Below are positions 1 through 56,679 of a stretch of DNA of 64,000 nucleotides, one piece after another. Source of the DNA: Chlorobiota bacterium (lineage in GTDB: Bacteria > Bacteroidota > Ignavibacteria > Kapaibacteriales > NICIL-2); NCBI GenBank assembly GCA_039810585.1, contig JBDHXF010000003.1:13127-77126 (forward strand), in the 5' to 3' direction. Every line of letters begins with the position of its first letter. Position 1 is the first letter of the stretch. A program made the position numbers and the translations under genes. The notes below the pieces were generated by a model that did no database searches, was not told the origin of the DNA, and saw only the letters and a list, made by a program, of their open reading frames with translations.

Positions 1-971
1 GCAGATTCGAAGGGTACCACAAATTGATATTGGAAAAATCCCTGTGCACCGTAGGCACGATTCCATTGTTCGATGCCGTCCAGTGGATAAAAGAAAGGAC
101 GGTAATGAACACGATGTTCGGACTCGCGGCGAAACTGTCGATGATAGTACAACGCGCTCGCAAGACGCATCGTCCATTTGTTCATGGTAAACGAAGGGAA
201 GTCGAAGGGAACTACGAGACGCGAATTGTTGTCAGAATCAGGTGAAGACGCCTGGACGGCATCAACGAAGCTGCCACCCATGAAAATTCCTCGACCCATA
301 CGCGAGCCTGTTGCAGAGCAGTCGATCCAAGAAACCACGTAGGGGTAGATCTTGTCGGATTCGCGTGAGTGTTCCAGATATTCATCCACATGCTGAAATC
401 GAATGCTGTGTTGAAGAAGGTAAGGTGACGGTATGCGTATGAGTCGGAACTCAGCCCAGGTGATAATGCCGGTGAGTCCAAGTCCGCCGATCGTCGCACT
501 AAACCAATCGGGATTTTCAGTTGGCGAGCAGAGGATTCGCGAGCCGTCGGATCGAAGTAACTCAAAACAGATAACATGAGAGCCGAAGCTACCGGCACTG
601 TGATGATTTTTCCCGTGTACGTCGTTTGCGATCGCTCCGCCAACGCTCACCATTTGGGTTCCGGGTGTGACGGGGAGGAAAAGTCCACGAGGTACGATGA
701 GTGACAAAATCTCATCCAGTCTCACGCCCGCCTCACATCGTATCACAAGCTGTTGTTCATCCACGTTTAAAATCCGATGCATGGCTGTGCAATCGATGAG
801 CGTGCCATTCTCATTCAAACACGAGTCGCCATAACTGCGTCGGTATCCTACAGGCAGTACGCTGCCCTCAATCGAGCGAAAATCCGGGGTCTGGTCTGTC
901 CACGTCATACTCCGCACATCGGCGTGATGAACTTGCGGAGTACGTCCCCATGAACGGAGTGTCGTGATCAT
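1..971 (-). CDS. DprE1-like FAD-dependent oxidoreductase (decaprenylphosphoryl-beta-D-ribose 2'-oxidase homolog); 3' end lies beyond the window start
   Basis: Absent from the ORF track because no stop falls inside the window. Manual minus-strand translation from the ATG at complement 969-971 is open all the way to position 1: [14 protein letters not shown]...[12 protein letters not shown]...[33 protein letters not shown]...[10 protein letters not shown]...[20 protein letters not shown]. These blocks align with M. tuberculosis DprE1 ([65 protein letters not shown]). The start overlaps the stop of the upstream gene (ATGA at 968-971). Confidence 0.8.
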   Translation of the reverse strand, partial: [323 protein letters not shown]

Positions 972-2425
972 GGCAGAATGGAGGTGGAGACGGTGGAAAC
1001 GGCAACAATGACAAGACTCATCAGCGCTATAAGGTAGCTTACGCGATCCTCCATGGCAAACACGACCGGATCGTCGTGCATTTCTCCGCGATGAGCAATA
1101 AACCAAATACGCGTGATCCAATAGAGCAGGAGCGGCTCCAATAGCCACAATCGCATCGGATGCGCATACAGCTTGACCACGTCGGTAGAGTTGATATAGA
1201 GTGCCATCACCAGAACGGACATGTATCCCGCCGCTGTGCCCACAGACCGAAGGATATCACTGTCATGGACACTGTATCCGCGACCCGAGAGTTCGCTTCT
1301 TAACTCTGATTTCATTACCAAGAGCTCTGAATAGCGCTTCACAATAGCCAAACTCAGAAACATGAACATCGAAAAAGCGAGCATCCACGGAGATATTGCG
1401 ACATCGGCTGCGATCGCACCGCACAAAATTCTGTACACGTAGAGGCCGGCGAGAATAAGCACGTCGACAATCACCACTCTTTTCAAACTGAAGGAATACG
1501 CCGAAGTAATAAGGGCGTAGCACGCCAGAGCAAGCGTGAACCCCAGTCCAACACTGAGTGCCAATGCTGCTGACGCTATGAGGAGAATTGGAACCATCAT
1601 CAATCCGTGATGGACGGGAACTTGTCCCGATGCAAACGGTCGCAGCTTTTTTCGCGGATGTCGGCGATCGCTCTCGATATCCAAAAGGTCGTTCACGATA
1701 TACACAGCAGACGCGCAGAGACTAAACGCCGCGAACGCCTCGATTCCGCTGAGGATTTTTTGTAGGTCGAAGATCTTATGTGCCAGGAGCAACGGCAGAA
1801 ATATCAACAGGTTCTTGAGCCACTGGTGCATACGCAAGCAGCGCAGGTACGCTGCCACACCGGAGCCACGAGTGTAGAACACTCGCGCAAAGGGTCGTCC
1901 CAATGTGCGCTCCAACCCTGATGCGGGATTTACGGCGATAGCGTCGTGCGCTGCCTTCCATACAGGGAGATCCGCAGAGCGGTCGCCCACATAATCAAAC
2001 TCCTGATTGCCAATAAGTTCTCGAATGGCCTTAACCTTTGCTTCACCACCAATGTTCTCCTGCGAATCGGTTGCCAAGCAATCATCAAAGACGCCGAGGC
2101 GGTCGCACAATGGTTGAGCAATGCTGCGTAGCGACGCGGTTGCGAGTACACAACGTCTTCCTCGTGCATGTTCTTCACGTACAAAGGCAAGAACCTCGTC
2201 ATGTATAGGCACGGAACTGACGTCGGGTGTAGCAATGGCCGCTAAGCGCTGCTTCATGGCAACCTTGCCGTGGCGGTACCAGAGAGGGAGAGCAAACAGC
2301 GCCCAAGGACGTTGTTTCAGCACGAGAAGAATGGTTTCGTAGGTGACATCGGTTGCCAACAAGCTGAAGTCGAGGTCGACAATCAGAGGTCGCAAGGTCG
2401 ATTGGTCGGCTTGGTGTGCACTCAC
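968..2425 (-). CDS. Fusion protein: N-terminal HAD-family phosphatase domain plus C-terminal UbiA-family polyprenyl-phosphate prenyl/phosphoribosyl-transferase (DPPR-synthase-like)
   Basis: 485-aa ORF. The N-terminus carries HAD motif I (LIVDLDFSLLATDVTYE, DxD). The C-terminal half is multi-TM and carries the UbiA Asp-rich motif NDLLDIESDRRHPRKKLRPFASGQV. The stop TGA at 968-970 overlaps the ATG of the downstream DprE1-like gene. Confidence 0.75.
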   Translation of the reverse strand: MSAHQADQSTLRPLIVDLDFSLLATDVTYETILLVLKQRPWALFALPLWYRHGKVAMKQRLAAIATPDVSSVPIHDEVLAFVREEHARGRRCVLATASLRSIAQPLCDRLGVFDDCLATDSQENIGGEAKVKAIRELIGNQEFDYVGDRSADLPVWKAAHDAIAVNPASGLERTLGRPFARVFYTRGSGVAAYLRCLRMHQWLKNLLIFLPLLLAHKIFDLQKILSGIEAFAAFSLCASAVYIVNDLLDIESDRRHPRKKLRPFASGQVPVHHGLMMVPILLIASAALALSVGLGFTLALACYALITSAYSFSLKRVVIVDVLILAGLYVYRILCGAIAADVAISPWMLAFSMFMFLSLAIVKRYSELLVMKSELRSELSGRGYSVHDSDILRSVGTAAGYMSVLVMALYINSTDVVKLYAHPMRLWLLEPLLLYWITRIWFIAHRGEMHDDPVVFAMEDRVSYLIALMSLVIVAVSTVSTSILP

Positions 2426-2576: not shown

Positions 2577-3482
2577 TTAGTGAATCACTTCCAAGGGAAC
2601 CGTATAACTTCTCAACGAGCTCACAATGCGAACATAGTAGGTTCCGTTAGCGAGCGAAGAAACAGGCAGGACAAGATTGGCACCGTCTGAAGCTGTGCCC
2701 AATTCCAGACCTGCTGACAAAGCGTCCCCGACGACGCTCAAGACGCGCACGGATTGAATGGTCGGGTTGTCCTCCGGCAGTCGCATGTACGCGAAATCGG
2801 ACGCGGGATTTGGATAGCAAAGCACGGTGGCGTTATGCTTGGCCTCGTCGAGGACTGAGGTTTGAACCGCATTGCAGATGGCGTCGCTTCGGTGCGAGGC
2901 ATCGTACACACACACCATCTCGCCATCCTTGTAATGCATTTGAACAATCCAGACCGTCGATCCGGGAGGGAAAAGATCCGAATTCGTCTCGTCGGCATTA
3001 ACAAGCAGAAGTGTGTCCGCGCTGAGTGTTGGGTATTGAACGGCGATGGAAACAAAGGTATTGTTTTGTGCCAATGCGTACACAAGACTGTCGCTTTGAA
3101 TAACGTTTTCGTCAATACGCTCATGCATCACTTCTGCACTGTCGGCAGGAAGTTCTAAGGCCACGCAGTTGCCGGTGGTTTTTGACCGATACGCGAGAAC
3201 TGCTGCCGTGCGGTCATCCAAGTGCGAACGAAACGTGTATATCCACGCACTGGCGCTTGCGTTGCTAAAATCGAAATGAGAGCTGCCAATGATTTTGACA
3301 TTGGTCATTGTAAATGTAGCGGCTGCTGTTAACTCCGGAGCAGGAATGGTATCCATTGCCCTGAGTTTTGCGGCCTCAAAACAGGACTGTGACAATATCG
3401 GTGTGCCATCATCTTGTGCCCGGACGGCTGTACTCATGGTAAGAGAGAGAACCGTAGCAACAACTGTCATTGTGATTTTCAT
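2577..3482 (-). CDS. Secreted hypothetical protein with type-A T9SS C-terminal sorting domain
   Basis: N-terminal signal peptide (MKITMTVVATVLSLTMSTAVRAQ). The C-terminal ~80 aa read CYPNPASDFAYMRL...GTYYVRIVSSLRSYTVPLEVIH, which is typical of Por_Secre_tail. Confidence 0.6.
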   Translation of the reverse strand: MKITMTVVATVLSLTMSTAVRAQDDGTPILSQSCFEAAKLRAMDTIPAPELTAAATFTMTNVKIIGSSHFDFSNASASAWIYTFRSHLDDRTAAVLAYRSKTTGNCVALELPADSAEVMHERIDENVIQSDSLVYALAQNNTFVSIAVQYPTLSADTLLLVNADETNSDLFPPGSTVWIVQMHYKDGEMVCVYDASHRSDAICNAVQTSVLDEAKHNATVLCYPNPASDFAYMRLPEDNPTIQSVRVLSVVGDALSAGLELGTASDGANLVLPVSSLANGTYYVRIVSSLRSYTVPLEVIH

Positions 3483-3517: not shown

Positions 3518-3668
3518 AGATTTCATTGCGACGCGGAGCAGCGAGCTTGACGGTGTGCGTATGTTCGTATGCTGTGGACAACGACGATAGCAGAAAGTGC
3601 TTGAAACACGCAGATCGTTTTCCAATCGTTGTCAGGAGTATGAATTCTTCGACACATTCCAACTTTTC

Positions 3669-6600
3669 ATGCGACACCATTCTACGTCCTCTTTCGCCTT
3701 CACTCGACCTTTGTCATTGTTTTTCACCCTTGCTCTTGTCCTTACGTGCTCGCCGACAAGCTATGCCCAGACGGATTTGCACGCATTGGATAGCGTCTTG
3801 CACTGGCGCAACATCGGACCCTACCGTGGCGGTCGATGTTTAGCAGTGGCCGGACACCCCAGTCAGCCTAGCACCTGGTATTTCGGTGCTACCGGAGGGG
3901 GAGTATGGAAAAGTACCGACGCAGGTAATGCATGGATCAACGTATCGGATGGCTACTTCCATATGAGCTCAGTTGGCGCTTTGGCGGTTGCGCCGAGTGA
4001 TGCACAAGTGTTGTACGCGGGCATGGGTGAAGCAGAAATTCGCGGTGACTGTGCAACCGGAGACGGCGTGTATCGCAGCACCGATGCGGGTGCCAGCTGG
4101 ATCCACGTTGGTCTGGAGAATACGAAGGCTATTGGCGCTCTGGCGATCGACCCTCGAAATGATCGCGTGGTATATGTGGCTGCTTTGGGCAATCCATTTC
4201 ATTCCAACCCGGAGCGTGGAGTGATGAAGACCACGGATGGCGGACAAAGTTGGCGAACAGTATTGTTTGCAGATGATACGACGGGCGCCATTGATGTACA
4301 GATCGATCCTCTCAACCCTCGAACCGTGTACGCCAGTACCTGGAGCGCACAACGCACCCCCTTTAGTTTGTCTAGCGGAGGACACAGCTGCTCGCTGTGG
4401 AAGTCCACCGATGAAGGCGAACACTGGACTAATCTCTCGATGAACGAGGGCATGCCCACCGGAATTCGCGGCAAGATTTGCATCGCTGTCAGCCGCGCTC
4501 AGTCCGGCTTGGTATGGGCCATGATCGAGAACGAACGAGGAGGGCTCTATAAGTCGGATAACGGGGGGAAGAGCTGGACGAGAGTAAATCAAGATAAGAA
4601 TATACGTCAGCGACCATGGTACTTTTCCCGTGTCTATGCCGACCCCATGAATCCCGACGTTGTCTATGTTCTAAATGTTGGGTGGTATCGAAGTAAAGAT
4701 GCCGGCAAGAGTTTTCAGGGTATGCGATCGAAGCATGGAGATCATCATGCACTTTGGATCGACCCAACAAACCCGGAACGGATGATACTTGGGGACGACG
4801 GCAGTGCCTGTGTAAGCTACAATGGGGGAGAAACGTGGACAGATCAGGATATCCCAACAGGACAGTTCTATCATGTAAATCTGGACAATCAGTTTCCGTA
4901 TCGCATTTACGGAGCGCAACAGGACAATTCACCGGTGTGCATAAGTAGTCGCAGCTTTCGGGGAAGTATCGGAACTCGCGACTGGTTTCCGGCAGCAGGT
5001 GGTGAAAGTGGCTTTGTCGTCCCGCACCCACAAAAGCCTTGGGTGATTTTTGGAGGTAACTACGGCGGTTTCCTTGAGCGGATGAACACGAAAATTGAAC
5101 AAGGGCAGGATGTGTCCGTGTCTCCCGAAAACTGTATAGGAGAGGCGCCAAAACATTTAAAGGAGCGTTTTCAATGGACCTATCCTATCGTGTTTTCGCC
5201 GCACGACAGTAGCACCCTGTATGTGTGTTCACAACACGTGTGGCGCTCGACCAACGAAGGCGATAGCTGGACGCGAATTAGTGATGACCTCACGCGAAAC
5301 GACACAACGAAGGAGATTGCCTCGGGTGGCCCGATTACCAAGGACAATACCGGAGTGGAGGTCTATTGCACGGTATTTGCCTTTGCTGAGTCTCCGCTAA
5401 AAGCCGGTGTGCTTTGGGCGGGGAGCGACGACGGTCTCGTCCATGTCAGTACCGACAACGGTAATCACTGGGTGGACGTGACGCCCAAAATCATTCCCGA
5501 GTGGTCGCTTATTTCGACGATCGAAGCCTCTGCTTTCGATCCTGCGACTGCGTACGTGGCGGCAACACGCTACAAAGTGGGTGACAATACTCCCTACCTC
5601 CTAAAGACAACGGATTACGGAAAGACTTGGGCTCTCATCACTCAGGGTATTCCCGCTACTGCATTTTGCCGTGTGATTCGTGAGGATCCTGTCGATCGTG
5701 GTTTACTCTTCTGCGGGACTGAATATGGCGTGTACTGCTCACTAAATGACGGCTTGAGCTGGATGTCGTTGCAGACCAATCTACCAGTGTGTCCGGTGCA
5801 TGACTTGGCGATTCAGCACCGTGAAGGAGACTTGGTGGCAGCTACACACGGTCGTGCATTTTGGATTTTAGACGACTTATCCGTGCTTAGACAATACCGC
5901 GATTCACTCAAAGACCAACGTCTCGAGCTGATGAAACCTCGTCGTACATACCTTCTCTCCAATGGCTCCTATTCCTACCCGGGCATGGAAAGTGGCCAGA
6001 ACGCGCCGTCGGGTGTGCAATTCACCTACTATTTATCGGACACTACTGCCGCAGAGATTCAACTGGACATTCTGGATGAACACGAAACCGTGCTTCGGCA
6101 CTTCTCGTCTCTCAAGGACGAAAAAGGCGAGGAACAGAAAGTCTCCGCCGAATTCTATCGTTCGCCATCCTCCCATCCCTCGGGGTTGCTGCCTCATCAA
6201 AAAGGCATGAACAGGTTTGTATGGGATATGTGTCGTGCTGACATCACGGAAGTGCCCGGAGCGGTCTATTGGTTTGGTGGCCCCAACGGCATTGGTGTTC
6301 CACCGGGTACCTACCGCGCTCGATTACGTTGGTTGAACCATCAGTCAACGCAAGAGTTCAGCATCGTCAAAGATCCTCGCCTCAGTACGACGGCGGCCGA
6401 CTTTGAGGCGCAGTATGACTTGGGGAAGCGAATTCAAACGTTGGCGGATTCCTTGAACCGCAGTATCAATCACATGTCGGAGATCAAGGGTGCTGTGCAA
6501 CAGTGGGTGTCGCGCGCGTCGGAGCTAAAGGATAGCGTCGATCAGAAGCGATTGAAAGATGCCGCCAAGAAGTTAAGCGACACGCTGAGTTCTATCGAGT

Positions 6601-6869
6601 CGGAGTGCATTGAGCGTCGCGCCAAAGCCGGTCAGGACGCATTGAACTACCCGCTGAAGCTCAATAACAAGATTCTGGCGCTGAAGAGTACGGTCTATTC
6701 GGCAGATGCACGGCCAACGAAGCAAGCCTACGATAGTTTTGACGACCTTTCCCGTCGTATAAATCTACAGCTCGCACGATTGGACATAGTGTTGTCCAAG
6801 GATCTGCCTGCATTCAACGCCTTAATCCACGAGCTGAATCTGCCGGCCATTCCGCCCGACAAAAAATAA
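3669..6869 (+). CDS. Secreted BNR/Asp-box repeat beta-propeller protein (sortilin/Vps10- or GH74-like), ~1066 aa
   Basis: Eleven Asp-box motifs (S/TxDxGxxW): STDAGNAW, STDAGASW, TTDGGQSW, STDEGEHW, SDNGGKSW, SKDAGKSF, YNGGETW, STNEGDSW, STDNGNHW, TTDYGKTW, LNDGLSW. I chose the ATG at 3669 as the start because it immediately precedes a signal peptide (MRHH...LVLTCSPTSYAQ); the track's GTG start at 3597 is less likely. Confidence 0.6.
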   Translation: MRHHSTSSFAFTRPLSLFFTLALVLTCSPTSYAQTDLHALDSVLHWRNIGPYRGGRCLAVAGHPSQPSTWYFGATGGGVWKSTDAGNAWINVSDGYFHMSSVGALAVAPSDAQVLYAGMGEAEIRGDCATGDGVYRSTDAGASWIHVGLENTKAIGALAIDPRNDRVVYVAALGNPFHSNPERGVMKTTDGGQSWRTVLFADDTTGAIDVQIDPLNPRTVYASTWSAQRTPFSLSSGGHSCSLWKSTDEGEHWTNLSMNEGMPTGIRGKICIAVSRAQSGLVWAMIENERGGLYKSDNGGKSWTRVNQDKNIRQRPWYFSRVYADPMNPDVVYVLNVGWYRSKDAGKSFQGMRSKHGDHHALWIDPTNPERMILGDDGSACVSYNGGETWTDQDIPTGQFYHVNLDNQFPYRIYGAQQDNSPVCISSRSFRGSIGTRDWFPAAGGESGFVVPHPQKPWVIFGGNYGGFLERMNTKIEQGQDVSVSPENCIGEAPKHLKERFQWTYPIVFSPHDSSTLYVCSQHVWRSTNEGDSWTRISDDLTRNDTTKEIASGGPITKDNTGVEVYCTVFAFAESPLKAGVLWAGSDDGLVHVSTDNGNHWVDVTPKIIPEWSLISTIEASAFDPATAYVAATRYKVGDNTPYLLKTTDYGKTWALITQGIPATAFCRVIREDPVDRGLLFCGTEYGVYCSLNDGLSWMSLQTNLPVCPVHDLAIQHREGDLVAATHGRAFWILDDLSVLRQYRDSLKDQRLELMKPRRTYLLSNGSYSYPGMESGQNAPSGVQFTYYLSDTTAAEIQLDILDEHETVLRHFSSLKDEKGEEQKVSAEFYRSPSSHPSGLLPHQKGMNRFVWDMCRADITEVPGAVYWFGGPNGIGVPPGTYRARLRWLNHQSTQEFSIVKDPRLSTTAADFEAQYDLGKRIQTLADSLNRSINHMSEIKGAVQQWVSRASELKDSVDQKRLKDAAKKLSDTLSSIESECIERRAKAGQDALNYPLKLNNKILALKSTVYSADARPTKQAYDSFDDLSRRINLQLARLDIVLSKDLPAFNALIHELNLPAIPPDKK

Positions 6870-8890: not shown

Positions 8891-9931
8891 ATGGATTCCA
8901 CCCCTCAAAGCCTCATCTCCCGCAAGCAACAGCACGTTGAACTCTGTGTGCAGGAAGATGTTCGATTTCGTCATAAAACAACCGGACTCGAACGCATCGA
9001 TTTGGAGTACTGCGCGCTTCCGGAAATCGATGCATCCGATGTTCAAAGCTCCACAGAATTATTAGGAAAACAGCTCAGCATACCGTTGATCATCAGTGGA
9101 ATGACGGGTGGGTATGAGGGCGCAGAACGCATCAATGCCGAACTGGCGGAGGTCTGCGAAGAAAAGGGTATTGCCATGGGTGTGGGTTCGCAACGACAGG
9201 CTTTGTTGAGCGAGCGCTTTCACGAGAGTTATCGAGCGGTGCGACGCTTTGCTCCGAGCATCGCCGTCATTTCTAACATAGGTGCCACGGAACTGGTGCA
9301 GGGTCAGGACTGGCGTTCGCTGCAGCGTGTCTGCGCATTAGTTCAAGCAAATGCACTGGCGGTGCATCTTAATCCTTTGCAAGAACTCTTGCAGCCTGAG
9401 GGGACACCGAAGTTTCGAGGCGTGTTGAAAGCGATAGCGCGACTGGTGCGTGAGTCGGACATTCCGATAATCGTCAAGGAAGTTGGCGCGGGTATCTCAG
9501 CTGCCGTTGCGAAACGTTTGCTCGAGGCAGGGGTACGCTATATCGATGTGGCCGGCGCCGGTGGAACGTCATGGTCCGGTGTTGAATTGTTGCGATCCGA
9601 AACCAAACATTTGGATGAGCTTTGGGACGCCGGCATTCCGACTGCTGAGTGTTTAGATCAGATTCGGCCGCTCAAGCAACATTCTAACTTGCAACTAATT
9701 GCGTCGGGAGGTATTCAATCCGGGTTCGAAATAGCAAAGTGTATCGCACTTGGTGCCGATATTGCAGGCTCTGCGCGTCCGCTTCTCCGAACTTTGGTCA
9801 GTGATGGTCAGGACGGTTTACGTTTGCTCATTGAGCAATGGTCTGACCAGCTCCGTGCCCAGATGTTTGCGTGCGGTGTTGCTTCCATAAGCGCGTTACA
9901 GACGGTCAGCTGGACGGAACGCAGAGCTTAA
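8891..9931 (+). CDS. fni: Isopentenyl-diphosphate delta-isomerase, type 2 (FMN-dependent)
   Basis: 346 aa. The N-terminus (SRKQQHVELC...TGLERIDLEYCALPEID...IPLIISGMTGG) matches IDI-2. Confidence 0.85.
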   Translation: MDSTPQSLISRKQQHVELCVQEDVRFRHKTTGLERIDLEYCALPEIDASDVQSSTELLGKQLSIPLIISGMTGGYEGAERINAELAEVCEEKGIAMGVGSQRQALLSERFHESYRAVRRFAPSIAVISNIGATELVQGQDWRSLQRVCALVQANALAVHLNPLQELLQPEGTPKFRGVLKAIARLVRESDIPIIVKEVGAGISAAVAKRLLEAGVRYIDVAGAGGTSWSGVELLRSETKHLDELWDAGIPTAECLDQIRPLKQHSNLQLIASGGIQSGFEIAKCIALGADIAGSARPLLRTLVSDGQDGLRLLIEQWSDQLRAQMFACGVASISALQTVSWTERRA

Positions 9932-10002
9932 ATAACAGACTGTGCCTTGTACGGCAGTGCAAGGGGACTTTGAACACTGCCGCGACTTTTGCTTTCCCTT
10001 CG

Positions 10003-11022
10003 ATGCCACCACCATTATCTCAAACAGAACAGCATGCCGCACTTCTGCTCTTGAACGATTTTCGAGAACAGTTGCGAAATACTCTTCACACCGTGCTGCC
10101 GGAGTTTACACATCCGCACGAACTGTATCTACCCTTTCACTACGTGATGCATCTCGAAGGGAAGTACATGCGCCCGCTCATCACGATGCTTTGCGCCCAT
10201 CTCAAAGAGGGCACTCTCCATGAATCGCTCTACGCCGGTTTAGCACTCGAGATCATGCATACCTTCACCTTGGTTCATGATGATATCATGGACAAATCGC
10301 CATTACGGAGAGGACAACCAAGTGTGCATCAAAAATGGAATGAGTCGACCGCAATCCTGAGTGGTGATGTGATGATGGGGGTTGCATACGAACTTCTCCT
10401 GCAGCATGTACGAGCTGAGCACGTAGCTCCTGTGCTCAAGATTTTTACCCGCGGATTTATCGATGTGTGCGAAGGACAGGCACTTGATATGTCGTTCGCC
10501 GAACGCGCACAGGTTTCGATGGACGAATACCTCGTGATGATCGAGAAAAAAACAGCAAGGCTCCCTCAAACGGCAGCCCGAATTGGCGCTGTGTTGGCAG
10601 AGTTGGATGAAGCTCAAACAGAAGCGGTGGCTGAGTTTGCCCTGCAGACCGGCATTGCCTTTCAAATACAGGATGATGTGCTGGATCTGCAAGCTGATCA
10701 AGCAGAGCTTGGCAAACGAGTAGGACAAGACGTTCTCGAAGGCAAGCAGACCTACTTGATTGTTCAGTTGCTGCACTGTGTGCCGAAGGATTCAGACGAC
10801 TATTCCTTACTCCAACGATTTTTGGATGAAAAAGGATTGCCGGAATCGATGCTGGACGAACTCCGTCAGCTCATGCAGCGCTATGGTGTGTTTGCTTCGG
10901 CAGAACTCGAAATCTCGAGGCGCTACGACATCGCACTGAGTGCACTGGATGCCCTTCCTGATGGTAAAGCTAAAAACGGTCTTCAACTTCTCACCCACAC
11001 CTTGGGAGAGCGCAGAAAATAA
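10003..11022 (+). CDS. Polyprenyl diphosphate synthase (GGPP/FPP synthase family)
   Basis: FARM motif LVHDDIMD and SARM motif QIQDDVLD. I chose the ATG at 10003 (MPPPLS...) as the start, rather than the track start at 9871, which would overlap fni. Confidence 0.8.
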   Translation: MPPPLSQTEQHAALLLLNDFREQLRNTLHTVLPEFTHPHELYLPFHYVMHLEGKYMRPLITMLCAHLKEGTLHESLYAGLALEIMHTFTLVHDDIMDKSPLRRGQPSVHQKWNESTAILSGDVMMGVAYELLLQHVRAEHVAPVLKIFTRGFIDVCEGQALDMSFAERAQVSMDEYLVMIEKKTARLPQTAARIGAVLAELDEAQTEAVAEFALQTGIAFQIQDDVLDLQADQAELGKRVGQDVLEGKQTYLIVQLLHCVPKDSDDYSLLQRFLDEKGLPESMLDELRQLMQRYGVFASAELEISRRYDIALSALDALPDGKAKNGLQLLTHTLGERRK

Positions 11023-52736: not shown

Positions 52737-54182
52737 TTACACTTTAGCCTCTCGCCACATATTTGAGCGCACCGCAATAAGGGAGGCAAGAGCAAACAAG
52801 CCGTAACCGGCAGCGCTTCCTATCCAGATACCTACCTGGTTCCACCCTGTGTACTGAGAAAACACGTAGACCAGTGGCAGCTGTAAAAACAAAATTGAAC
52901 CCGCAACGATAGCAAGACTTGCGTATGCGGCGCCGGAGCCGGAAATAACACGAGCCGAAACGATGCCCACTGCGAAGCCCACATATCCGAACACCGAGAC
53001 GTGCAGGTACTTTTGAACCTCGGCAATTACACCGGCGTCCGTTGTATAGATCGCTGCAAAGGACGATCCGAAGAGGTAGAACAACACACCGAGAACAGCA
53101 ATCACCACTCCCAGTATTTCAATGGCGGCGCGGTGGTAGCCCAGAACACGATCGAACTTCCGAGCGCCGAGGTTCTGTCCGGTCGCGACTTCAATCGAGA
53201 TTCCAACCGAAAACACGAACATAAACACGATGGCATCGACGCTTATTCCCAGTGTGTAGGCGGCCATCACGATGGTACCAAAGCCGGTGACAAGTTTGTA
53301 AATCGTCAAACGGGTTAAACTCACGGCCATCATCTGTACGGAAGACGGAAAGCCCAAGCGCACAATGCGCCGGATCGTGTCGGCGTGAACACGGAAGCCC
53401 TCCAATCGTAAATGGATGCCCGCTTTTCCTCTCAGGAGCAGGATGATATTGAACACTGCACCCAAACACTGAGCGGTTGCCGTTGCCAATCCGGCGCCAT
53501 ACATGCCCATGTTGAACACGAAAATGAAGATCGGCGCGAGAACTGCGTTGGCGACAGTGGTTGAGAGGAGAATGACCATCGGATAAAACACGTTGCCTGT
53601 ACTACGAACGATGGCATTGACCTGGAAGGTGAGCAAGTTGGCGCTAAAACCCAAAAAGATTGCCGTCAGATACTGTTGCGCATAGGCTGAAACCTGAGGA
53701 GCAGCATTGAATCGTTCGAGGATGGACGAGAGAGATAACTGTAGACCAACGCTTAATACTATGGTTGCAACGAGCATAAACACAATAGCCTGCGTTGCTG
53801 TCGAGTCGGCAGCATGTTGATCACCCTCGCCAATGCGTCGGGCAACGATGACGCCGGTCCCCATACTGAATCCGCTTCCGAGTGTGAACACCAAGAAGTT
53901 GATTTGCTCCCCGAGTCCGATTGCCGCAATGGCGTCGGTTCCCATATGGGAAATGAACCATCGGTCGATCAGCATGTACAACATGTTGACCAGAAAGCTA
54001 ATCGTAAGTGGAAGTGCAAAAGCGATGAGCGACGACCGATAGGGAGATTGTAACAAATCCACATGTCCACGACGGCGTGCAGGCGCTGTGGGAGCCGTGG
54101 GGGAAGAATCAGATTGAGCCGAGGGCTCAGATTGCCGCTTACCGACCAAATCGTCGATGTCGCTCATGGGATATTGTTTCAA
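52737..54182 (-). CDS. MATE family efflux transporter
   Basis: 481 aa, 12 TM, with typical MatE repeats. Confidence 0.8.
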   Translation of the reverse strand: MKQYPMSDIDDLVGKRQSEPSAQSDSSPTAPTAPARRRGHVDLLQSPYRSSLIAFALPLTISFLVNMLYMLIDRWFISHMGTDAIAAIGLGEQINFLVFTLGSGFSMGTGVIVARRIGEGDQHAADSTATQAIVFMLVATIVLSVGLQLSLSSILERFNAAPQVSAYAQQYLTAIFLGFSANLLTFQVNAIVRSTGNVFYPMVILLSTTVANAVLAPIFIFVFNMGMYGAGLATATAQCLGAVFNIILLLRGKAGIHLRLEGFRVHADTIRRIVRLGFPSSVQMMAVSLTRLTIYKLVTGFGTIVMAAYTLGISVDAIVFMFVFSVGISIEVATGQNLGARKFDRVLGYHRAAIEILGVVIAVLGVLFYLFGSSFAAIYTTDAGVIAEVQKYLHVSVFGYVGFAVGIVSARVISGSGAAYASLAIVAGSILFLQLPLVYVFSQYTGWNQVGIWIGSAAGYGLFALASLIAVRSNMWREAKV

Positions 54183-54274
54183 AAAAGGGGTCGCGAATAT
54201 ACTCCTTTCCGACGCCTTGAAAAAATTGACGATTGCTCAATCCCATTGTAGTTTGCGACGCAATCGATGCAACC

Positions 54275-55381
54275 ATGCCCGAATTCTTTTATTTCTTTTC
54301 GATTCTCAGCTACACTCTCCGGTCCGTGTATTTTGTGATTGGAGCAGCGGCTGAACGTCGCATACACAACCAAGCCCCGGCTCAACTTCCTTTCGTTTCC
54401 GTTATCGTACCGGCACGCAACGAGGAACACTGCATCGTACACTGCATCGAGAGCCTTGCAGCATTGAATTATCCTTCGGAGTTATTGGAGTGCATTGTTG
54501 TGAACGATCGCTCCTCCGATATGACCGGTACCATTGCTGCCATGCAGCAGCATCGATTTCCGGCCTTGAAGGTTTTGCATATCGAACGAGATGGCGAGAA
54601 AAACCTGCAGGGGAAAGCCGGAGCTTTGGAGTACGGCATTCGGGCAAGTAAAGGTGAGATTATTGTGATGACTGATGCCGATTGCATCGTCGATCCCGAG
54701 TGGGTACGGTCGCACGTCGAGGCGTACGGTATGGCGGACGTTGGTATGGTCTGCGCTTACACTCTTATCGATGGTCAAAGTACCTTTGCTAAAATGCAAG
54801 CCGTGGAGTGGACCAGTACGCATACGATGGCTAGCTCGGCACTCCATTTCAAACAGTACCTGGGATGTTATGGAAACAATCTCTCCATTCACCGTCGAGC
54901 CTATGATGCGGTGGGCGGTTATGCCAGCATTCCGTTTTCGGTGACCGAAGATTTAGCCTTGCTGCATGCTGTAACCAAACAGGGTTTTCGGGCTCGATAT
55001 CTGTGCTCACGAGAATCCAGCGTGCATTCGAGAGCACTGGAGACACTGTCTGAGTATGTGTCTCAACATAAACGATGGGCCATTGGCGGACGTCAGCTTG
55101 GCCTTCGAGCGGTTGTCTTCGTCATTACGTCCGCCTTGTTTTGGATGGGGATCGCGGCCGCAGTCTGGAACGGCTCGTGGTTGTGGTTGGTGCTGATCTT
55201 GCTCACCAGAGTAGTAGACGACATCGCCATTAATGCTCCCGCTCTTCATATATTTCGACGTCGCTCCTTACTACCCTTCATGGTTCCTGCCGTATTGTTT
55301 TTTAGCTTGCTGGAACTCGTCCTTCCGTTTCTTCTGATCGACGGAACAACGAAGTGGAAAGGACAAGTCTTTAAATCCTAA
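54275..55381 (+). CDS. Processive family-2 glycosyltransferase (membrane-integrated; NodC/HAS/ceramide-glucosyltransferase-like)
   Basis: PFVSVIVPARNEE (first D region), TDADCIV (DxD), QHKRWAIGGRQ (Q/RxxRW), and C-terminal TM helices. ATG 54275 is preferred; the track start at 54233 is a TTG. A TAGTTTG motif at 54249-54255 resembles the Bacteroidetes -7 promoter element. Confidence 0.7.
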   Translation: MPEFFYFFSILSYTLRSVYFVIGAAAERRIHNQAPAQLPFVSVIVPARNEEHCIVHCIESLAALNYPSELLECIVVNDRSSDMTGTIAAMQQHRFPALKVLHIERDGEKNLQGKAGALEYGIRASKGEIIVMTDADCIVDPEWVRSHVEAYGMADVGMVCAYTLIDGQSTFAKMQAVEWTSTHTMASSALHFKQYLGCYGNNLSIHRRAYDAVGGYASIPFSVTEDLALLHAVTKQGFRARYLCSRESSVHSRALETLSEYVSQHKRWAIGGRQLGLRAVVFVITSALFWMGIAAAVWNGSWLWLVLILLTRVVDDIAINAPALHIFRRRSLLPFMVPAVLFFSLLELVLPFLLIDGTTKWKGQVFKS

Positions 55382-55413
55382 GTAGGAATATCCGTCGTCG
55401 GAAAAGGGGAAGC

Positions 55414-56679
55414 ATGAGCACATCGACTAACCGGAACACTCCGGAATCAAACTCCACCCGCATTAGCGCCTATCACCTGGTTGTATTCTTCGTCTGCTGG
55501 CTCGGTGGAATGTTCGATGGTATGGACTCTACCTTTATGTCGGCCGTGCAACCCAAAGCTGTGGAGGAGTTGCTGCGGGGAACAGTGGATCTCGATCCCT
55601 ACACGATCGCCTCGTATATCAATGCCGCATTCCTCTTTGGATGGATGGGGGGCGGTATTGTGTTTGGCTTGATAGGCGACAAGTTAGGACGTGTGCGGTC
55701 GATGCTTTTATCAATACTCCTCTATGCCATCTTCACCGGCACCGCAGGATTTGCCCAAACCTGGTGGCAGCTTGCCTTGTTTCGCTCATTGACCGGTCTC
55801 GGTATTGGGGGAGAACTCGTGAGTATCACCACCTTTCTTTCGGAAGTTTGGGTGGAACGCTCCAGACCATTCGCAGTGGGAGCTCTCATCACTTCTTACC
55901 AAGCGGGTGTGTTGATCGCCGGAATTGTGACGCGTCAGGTTGAGTACTGGCGACACGTGTTCTTCATCGGTGCTATTCCTGCTATTCTTACCATCTTTCT
56001 TCGACTATCGTTAAAGGAATCTGAGAAGTGGCAATCGTCTGTACAGCATCACCATGAAGATCTTTCGCTTCTCGGGGAGGTACTTTCGCCCCGTTACCGC
56101 CGAAGTGCTTGGATTGGTGCCATTGCTTTTGGCGGATTGCTTATTGGCTACTGGGCCTCTTTGGCTTGGATTCCACAGTGGATTCAAAGCTTCTTCGCTG
56201 CCGGCTATACCGGAAATGTGGAGCGGGGGAATGTACTATTCTTTGAAGGTTTAGCAGCAGTACTTGGATGTGCGTCGGCTGGCTGGATGAGCAATCACCT
56301 GGGAAGGCGATATACCATCATGATAAGCTACCTTGGTAGTTTTCTCGCCTCGGCTTTACTCTTCTTGTCCAACAAGCAGTTCAGCTCACTCATTTATTGG
56401 CAGGTTTCGTTGTTGGGCTATTTCATTGGTCTTGCTCAGGCCATTATGTACATCTATCTACCGGAGTTGTTCCCAACACGCATTCGAGCTACTGCGGTGG
56501 GCTTTGGATTAAATGCCGGTCGCTTTGCCACCGGAGTGACCGTGCTCTTTGTAGGCGTCATTGTGCAGACCTTGGGTGGACATGCCCAGTCTGCGATGTT
56601 TTTTGCCACCGGTTACCTCATTGCTGTGGTCGCCGCTTTCTTTGGTCCGGAGACGAAGGGTAAGGGCTTACCCGAGTAA
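55414..56679 (+). CDS. MFS transporter
   Basis: 421 aa, 12 TM. MFS motif A GLIGDKLGRVRSM. Confidence 0.8.
   Translation: MSTSTNRNTPESNSTRISAYHLVVFFVCWLGGMFDGMDSTFMSAVQPKAVEELLRGTVDLDPYTIASYINAAFLFGWMGGGIVFGLIGDKLGRVRSMLLSILLYAIFTGTAGFAQTWWQLALFRSLTGLGIGGELVSITTFLSEVWVERSRPFAVGALITSYQAGVLIAGIVTRQVEYWRHVFFIGAIPAILTIFLRLSLKESEKWQSSVQHHHEDLSLLGEVLSPRYRRSAWIGAIAFGGLLIGYWASLAWIPQWIQSFFAAGYTGNVERGNVLFFEGLAAVLGCASAGWMSNHLGRRYTIMISYLGSFLASALLFLSNKQFSSLIYWQVSLLGYFIGLAQAIMYIYLPELFPTRIRATAVGFGLNAGRFATGVTVLFVGVIVQTLGGHAQSAMFFATGYLIAVVAAFFGPETKGKGLPE

Follow-up and report, generated by a model that had tools for sequence, protein, structure and literature searches.

What would a bacterium of the Bacteroidota group do with enzymes that resemble the arabinose machinery of mycobacteria? 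D-arabinofuranose (D-Araf) is a sugar familiar above all as a component of the mycobacterial cell wall. The question is raised by two overlapping genes at the start of a 64-kb stretch of DNA from a Chlorobiota bacterium (contig JBDHXF010000003.1, positions 13,127 to 77,126), the whole of which is here called the window. One gene fuses a HAD phosphatase domain to a UbiA-fold membrane transferase and the other encodes a homolog of DprE1. We regard it as probable, with considerable confidence, that they open a three-gene operon whose products would build a polyprenyl-phosphate-linked D-Araf donor on the inner membrane, at its cytoplasmic side.

Both genes are present and their domain E-values are far beyond chance. 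The fusion gene (968..2425, minus strand) is complete in the list of open reading frames, with a GTG start and 485 codons, and its product is 100% identical to database protein P0001. It divides into a HAD-IB-type phosphatase domain (residues ~1-188; 1862..2425, minus strand) and a UbiA-fold membrane phosphoribosyltransferase domain (residues ~190-478; 992..1858, minus strand). The DprE1 homolog (1..971, minus strand) is cut by the window edge, up to which its frame stays open and encodes the first 323 of 438 amino acids. The two meet at 968..971 on the minus strand in an ATGA overlap (...CTGCCATGATCACG...), where the ATG of the DprE1 gene (971-969) shares letters with the TGA of the fusion gene (970-968), as had been noted in the preliminary description of the window. 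This overlap indicates one operon with translational coupling of the two genes, and an abutting or overlapping arrangement is also seen in the related loci L081, L083, and L085. A 143-aa open reading frame at 212-643 (minus strand) is spurious, since the DprE1 gene covers it in a different frame.

The phosphatase-transferase fusion

Pfam assigns the fusion protein a HAD domain (PF12710, E 1.2e-13, residues 59-155) and a UbiA domain (PF01040, E 9.6e-21, residues 218-360), and the NDxxDxxxD motif named in the preliminary description is found as N245-D246-x-x-D249-x-x-x-D253. The best NCBIfam model is NF006088/PRK08238 (“UbiA family prenyltransferase”), which scores 609.1 bits against a cut-off of 351 and aligns residues 4-478 of the protein with positions 4-480 of the 482 in the model. 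Since this match runs from end to end and exceeds the cut-off, the fused architecture is itself a curated family. Three models of decaprenyl-phosphate phosphoribosyltransferase (DPPRS) come second, with 121-155 bits over residues 190-477. Models of quinone, heme-o, chlorophyll, and archaeal-lipid prenyltransferases reach 47 bits at most; the best of the quinone, heme, and chlorophyll models has 46.7 bits where its cut-off is 269, and ubiA_proteo has 34 bits, which places the protein outside those families.

Structural comparisons lead to a mycobacterial enzyme of the DPPRS kind. Among solved structures, the top match of the UbiA half is Mycobacterium tuberculosis Rv3806c (8j8j, 110 bits), and the next UbiA-family entry scores 27 bits. 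An AlphaFold model of the fusion, built on 21 homologs, has a mean pLDDT of 87.8 and a pTM of 0.81, with a pLDDT of ~90 across the HAD domain. Searched with Foldseek, this model is most similar to 8j8j and 8j8k (TM-score 0.83, target-normalised), with archaeal UbiA homologs at ~0.7, and its N-terminal domain matches the HAD-IB protein 3fvv and SerB phosphoserine phosphatases with a probability of 1.0. A sequence profile of the HAD domain gave nothing significant among solved structures (best E 0.21), so the assignment of this fold comes from the AlphaFold model and Foldseek.

Are the two halves likely to be active? In Rv3806c, Asn73 and Asp77 bind Mg2+, pyrophosphate is contacted by Arg22, Lys87, Arg90, Lys143, and Tyr138, and Lys28 contacts both phosphoribosyl pyrophosphate (PRPP) and the lipid phosphate (Gao et al., PMC10994848). 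An HMMER alignment covering ten Rv3806c residues (R22, K28, N73, D74, D77, D81, K87, R90, Y138, and K143) finds all ten identical in the fusion, as R198, K204, N245, D246, D249, D253, K259, R262, Y310, and K315, and these positions for PRPP, Mg, and lipid phosphate are invariant across 21 diverse homologs. The HAD half carries D17-x-D19 (in VDLDFS), T96, K130, and G147-D148-x-x-x-D152, of which D17, D19, T96, K130, and D152 are likewise invariant across the 21 homologs. With these residues invariant, both halves look catalytically competent. By extension from characterised homologs, the protein is predicted to join a HAD phosphoribose-5-phosphatase (PRP) to a UbiA-fold polyprenyl-phosphate 5-phosphoribosyltransferase (PPPRS), and the catalytic residues retained in the HAD domain are consistent with its replacing a separate phosphatase of the Rv3807c type.

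The DprE1 homolog and its putative partner reductase

The window fragment of the oxidase contains FAD_binding_4 (PF01565, E 1.7e-19) and scores 283 bits (E 4e-84) against the NCBIfam DprE1 model NF053785. Against solved structures it gives 200 bits with DprE1, where identical runs such as QYQFVVP are visible in the alignment, and 40 bits with xylitol oxidase, the best entry other than DprE1. A database search with the fragment retrieved the full 438-aa protein (P0121, 100% identity), which scores 374.7 bits against NF053785, 258 bits against the solved DprE1 structures, and no more than 61 bits against GlcD, lactone oxidases, bacterial FAD oxidases, and other flavoenzyme families. Judged by these scores, the oxidase is closer by far to DprE1 than to any other flavoenzyme family, in line with the earlier identification of a DprE1 homolog at 1-971.

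Alignment of P0121 to 21gq_A/4aut_A shows that HGKNHH (His132 and Lys134) and GGRLYPAKD (Lys418) are conserved. The residues at M. tuberculosis Asn385 and Cys387 are Thr and Ala, respectively. Cys387 of DprE1 is the covalent target of benzothiazinones and belongs to the drug-binding site, having no catalytic role; with Ala and Thr at these two positions, P0121 is predicted to be insensitive to covalent nitro-benzothiazinones.

Where, then, is the reductase that would complete the epimerization? Four syntenic relatives (from the L081-L085 set, including L082) were compared, whose fusion proteins are 56-62% identical to that of the window. In each of the four, a short-chain dehydrogenase/reductase (SDR) of 249-250 aa abuts the stop of the DprE1 gene. 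A search with the L081 SDR found P0242 (252 aa, 61% identical), and the NCBI contigs recorded for P0001, P0121, and P0242 are all 171,226 bp long. Among solved structures, P0242 scores best against M. tuberculosis DprE2 as seen in the DprE1-DprE2 complex, with 117 bits (the next SDR scores 61), and it reaches 290 bits against NF005489, for which the cut-off is 267. Synteny and the shared contig size together suggest that a DprE2-like SDR gene very probably lies directly beyond the window start, where the preliminary description had placed one. The same description had also expected the glycosyltransferases that consume the donor to lie there. This part did not hold: in all four relatives the SDR is followed instead by HpnC, HpnD, a 2Fe-2S thioredoxin-like gene, a DUF6576 protein, and PBP, with a Rieske/CTD gene between the thioredoxin-like and DUF6576 genes in two of them.

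A predicted donor pathway and its known counterparts

The comparison with Rv3806c and DprE1 that had been proposed at the outset, when the pair was taken for a module making a donor like decaprenyl-phospho-arabinose (DPA), thus bears that proposal out: the two are the best matches among models and structures, quinone prenyltransferases and GlcD score far lower, and both bit scores and fold group the UbiA domain with Rv3806c, as bit scores do the oxidase with DprE1. How might the pathway run? The UbiA-fold domain would transfer phosphoribose from PRPP to polyprenyl phosphate, most likely undecaprenyl phosphate in this Gram-negative cell, to give polyprenyl-P-ribose-5-P, from which the fused HAD domain would strip the 5-phosphate to leave polyprenyl-P-ribofuranose. 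The DprE1 homolog would then oxidize C2' using FAD, and the DprE2-like SDR, probably encoded just past the window start, would reduce the 2'-keto intermediate to polyprenyl-P-arabinofuranose. These four steps are predicted from characterised homologs whose catalytic residues are kept here. The donor would presumably be flipped across the membrane, where a GT-C glycosyltransferase of the periplasm, with its gene in another part of the genome, would use it. The identities of the genes, the folds of their domains, the conserved catalytic residues, the operon arrangement, and the synteny with relatives are observations, whereas undecaprenyl phosphate as the lipid, arabinose as the end product, and a flippase and transferase to handle it are likewise predictions.

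The closest architectural precedent is ORF15 of Citrobacter youngae O1, whose N-terminal half is a HAD “PRP” domain and whose C-terminal “PPPRS” domain is related to Rv3806c. Its formation of polyprenyl-P-ribofuranose from PRPP was demonstrated by mutagenesis, by complementation, and by synthesis in vitro (Kelly et al., PNAS 2024, PMC11127046). In such three-component systems a PPPRS works with a flippase (MATE or SMR) and a GT-C enzyme to add periplasmic pentofuranose side chains; candidate systems for Araf glycans carry DprE1/E2 homologs and those for xylofuranose (Xylf) a GalE-like SDR, and further loci were given for Burkholderia, Rhizobium, Xanthomonas, E. coli, Bacillus, and one phage (Kelly et al., PMC11127046). 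The window fusion resembles ORF15 in the order of its HAD phosphatase and UbiA-fold domains and in PRPP as the predicted sugar source, a likeness of architecture, and it resembles the Araf systems in the addition of a DprE1 homolog, and probably of a DprE2 homolog, to PRP-PPPRS. A homolog from Burkholderia multivorans, a species for which Kelly et al. list such a system, aligns with 95% of the window protein at 42% identity. ORF15, however, belongs to a proteobacterium and lies in an O-antigen cluster beside a MATE flippase and a GT-C enzyme of family GT136, whereas the present host is Kapabacteria-like and falls in the Bacteroidota group.

The mycobacterial DPA pathway (Rv3806c, Rv3807c, DprE1 or Rv3790, and DprE2 or Rv3791) comprises the same four chemical steps as are predicted here, and the mycobacterial pair provides the best solved matches of both oxidase (258 bits to DprE1) and reductase (117 bits to DprE2). 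There are differences, however. The phosphatase is a fused HAD domain rather than a separate, unrelated enzyme, and the lipid is probably undecaprenyl instead of decaprenyl phosphate. Unlike the mycobacterial loci, the cassette has no Emb or Aft arabinosyltransferases as neighbors, its oxidase has Ala for Cys387, and its scores lie under the actinobacterial equivalog cut-offs. Two Gram-negative clusters also share homologs of Rv3806c, DprE1, and DprE2 that make a lipid-linked D-Araf donor, namely the rhizobial noeCHOP/noeCNHOP operon for Nod factor (PMC5080398) and the pilin D-Araf cluster of Pseudomonas aeruginosa Pa5196/PA7 (bioRxiv 10.1101/2020.04.19.049825). In these systems the acceptors (Nod factor and pilin) are established, and unlike the present cassette the clusters contain their own transferase (NoeP or TfpW) and a separate candidate phosphatase (NoeN or the PA7 enzyme).

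Distribution, gene neighborhood and alternative explanations

At least 6,731 proteins are homologous to the fusion at E ≤1e-10, and full-length homologs with 45-50% identity are found in Xanthomonadales, Burkholderiales, rhizobia, Myxococcota, Acidobacteriota, Nitrospirota, Bdellovibrionota, and other groups. A survey of 80 loci from species-representative genomes included 71 with enough downstream sequence to judge adjacency. A DprE1 homolog is present at 59 of the 80. It lies directly downstream of the fusion on the same strand at 50 of the 71, and at 44 of these 50 the SDR is directly next, so that the order fusion, DprE1, SDR holds for 44 of 71 loci; at 16 of the 71 the fusion occurs without DprE1. 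Neighboring genes across the survey encode GtrA-family proteins, small EamA/SMR-like membrane proteins, LPG_synthase_TM-type proteins, NAD epimerases, rml products, and large polytopic membrane proteins of no assigned family. On a plasmid of Ruegeria conchae, for example, RefSeq lists a UbiA-family prenyltransferase, GtrA, an FAD-binding oxidoreductase, an SDR, and a hypothetical protein of 543 aa, with a gene of the polysaccharide biosynthesis/export family at a distance of 2.3 kb. Stand-alone cassettes also occur at some loci of Acidobacteriota and Myxococcota.

Many proteobacterial loci have a large polytopic protein of 550-800 aa directly after the SDR (L005 13498-15297, L007 13417-15735, L019 13494-15878, and similar). 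No Pfam or NCBIfam family was found for these post-SDR proteins, which give weak hints of WsfD (18.8 bits) and an LA_3751-family glycosyltransferase (23 bits), and they may be considered candidate unclassified GT-C enzymes. At eight loci (L003, L021, L023, L038, L042, L047, L075, and L077) the fusion stands without DprE1 beside a small EamA/SMR-like membrane protein, accompanied by a large polytopic protein in seven of the eight (not L075); these eight are likely ribofuranose-type systems.

In the window, the gene that precedes the fusion on the minus strand (2577-3482), at a distance of 151 bp, encodes a 301-aa protein with a signal-peptide-like N-terminus. This protein has a borderline C-terminal sorting domain of the type IX secretion system (T9SS; Por_Secre_tail, 26.4 bits, just under the cut-off of 27). 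Beyond it lie a 1,090-aa protein of BNR/Asp-box and Sortilin-Vps10 repeats (3597-6869, plus strand) and, at 8891-11022 (plus strand), genes for an FMN_dh of the IDI-2 type and for a trans-polyprenyl synthase. The order FKBP, rhodanese, trans-polyprenyl synthase, IDI-2-type FMN_dh, PEPCK, BNR/sortilin (~1,080 aa), 301-aa protein, fusion, and DprE1 is kept in all four syntenic relatives, save that L082 is without the 301-aa gene, which leaves that gene at the same position in three. As HpnC and HpnD, for squalene synthesis, come directly after the SDR (L081 13560-15486, and likewise in the other relatives), with the IDI-2 and trans-polyprenyl synthase genes on the other side, the cassette sits within an isoprenoid/hopanoid neighborhood. 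Its position between these genes and those for T9SS cargo may be nothing more than inherited gene order. Carrier lipids are made by cis-prenyltransferases and not by trans-type synthases, for which reason the neighboring trans-polyprenyl synthase was rejected as the maker of the carrier.

If a donor is made here, what would flip and use it? A Pfam scan of the membrane proteins in the window found MATE, GT2, MFS, CcsA-like, CcmB, and rhomboid proteins and no GT-C. When the window was searched by tblastn with the SDR, GtrA, EamA-like, LPG-synthase-TM-like, and large polytopic proteins of related loci, the only gene recovered was that of DprE1 itself. No polytopic protein of at least 380 aa with at least seven predicted transmembrane segments is encoded near the cassette in the relatives. 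Beside the PPPRS there is neither a flippase of the MATE, SMR, or GtrA type (window and L081-L085) nor a GT-C enzyme (window and relatives), and the three-component arrangement is not found there. The only MATE gene in the window (52737-54182, minus strand) is 50 kb from the cassette, and Pfam identifies the genes adjoining it as a membrane-anchored GT2 and an MFS transporter, both on the plus strand (52737-56679 overall). In C. youngae, MATE proteins have been proposed as flippases of undecaprenyl-P-ribose.

Several observations weigh against a D-Araf donor operon. P0121 falls short of the NF053785 equivalog cut-off of 500, so it is called a DprE1 homolog outside the curated actinobacterial set, and P0242 scores 180 bits against the DprE2 model NF053786, under its cut-off of 250. 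The SDR lies outside the window, and in this genome its adjacency is read from synteny and the 171,226-bp match. At the Kapaibacterium reference locus L001 (2930-5055) no SDR adjoins DprE1, which is followed by a Peptidase_M15_4 protein and by what are likely coaD and dapB, both judged by eye; the reductase of that genome is either encoded elsewhere or missing. The 64-kb window has no GT-C gene and no flippase gene beside the cassette, and the four relatives have neither within 10 kb of it. Finally, the predicted activities are carried over from characterised homologs, none of them an enzyme of this lineage.

Could the product be a lipid-linked pentofuranose other than Araf, such as polyprenyl-P-ribofuranose, the 2'-keto intermediate, or another epimer? 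The specificities of the DprE1-like oxidase and of the SDR would have had to diverge from those of the mycobacterial pair, and we think this unlikely. The sub-threshold equivalog scores of both enzymes, Thr and Ala at the active-site neighbors N385 and C387, and L001 with its DprE1 but no adjacent SDR would fit such divergence, as would the use of a different SDR for xylofuranose in related systems (PMC11127046). On the other side, the DprE1/DprE2 pair is by far the best characterised match of both enzymes and the catalytic K418, H132, and K134 are retained; moreover, Kelly et al. (PMC11127046) report that DprE1/E2 homologs go specifically with glycans that contain Araf, and that Xylf systems have a GalE-like SDR. 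Quite unlikely, in our estimate, is a further reading, prompted by the lone three-gene cassette in at least five genomes, in which the pentofuranose has an unconventional fate, speculatively as a sugar on a T9SS cargo-anchoring glycan or in a pentosyl-isoprenoid membrane lipid, and does not serve as a donor for side chains of the O-antigen type.

It is very improbable that the cassette belongs to isoprenoid or hopanoid lipid metabolism, the UbiA-fold enzyme acting on an isoprenoid phosphate supplied by the neighboring genes to build a lipid head group, with no GT-C donor made. The synteny across five genomes, with IDI-2 and a trans-polyprenyl synthase on one side and HpnC/HpnD directly after the SDR, and the lack of a flippase or GT-C gene nearby (in the window and within 10 kb in relatives) would suit this explanation. 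However, other phyla place the same three genes with GtrA, large polytopic proteins, and rml or export genes for polysaccharides and not with hopanoid genes, the neighboring synthase is of the trans type whereas carrier lipids need the cis type, and gene order at 56-62% identity in one lineage is explicable by inheritance. A UbiA/MenA-type quinone or aromatic prenyltransferase paired with an unrelated flavoenzyme of the GlcD or gulonolactone-oxidase type, as public labels on many homologs would have it (often “4-hydroxybenzoate polyprenyltransferase” or “FAD/FMN-containing dehydrogenase”), is refuted by the family scores and has next to no probability, with UbiA, MenA, heme-o, and chlorophyll synthase models at ≤47 bits against 155 for DPPRS and 609 for NF006088, GlcD and lactone-oxidase models at ≤61 bits against 375 for DprE1, and the PRPP-binding residues specific to Rv3806c conserved.

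What does a D-Araf donor operon in this genome add to the known systems? The compact variant proposed in the preliminary description is not new: it is curated as NF006088, was biochemically characterised in 2024 (PMC11127046), and is found in thousands of genomes. The fusion and its pairing with DprE1/E2 were already published in that year and are widespread, and the cassette is an ordinary member in a little-studied lineage. Knowledge of the pathway itself is unchanged by the finding. A literature search found no report of a D-Araf donor pathway for the Kapabacteria-like Bacteroidota group. The finding also has value for annotation, as thousands of such genes are labeled only “UbiA family prenyltransferase”, “FAD-binding oxidoreductase”, or “SDR”. 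For the organism, a Kapabacteria-like, T9SS-bearing member of the Bacteroidota group, it predicts the ability to make a polyprenyl-phosphate D-arabinofuranose donor, likely for decoration of the cell surface.

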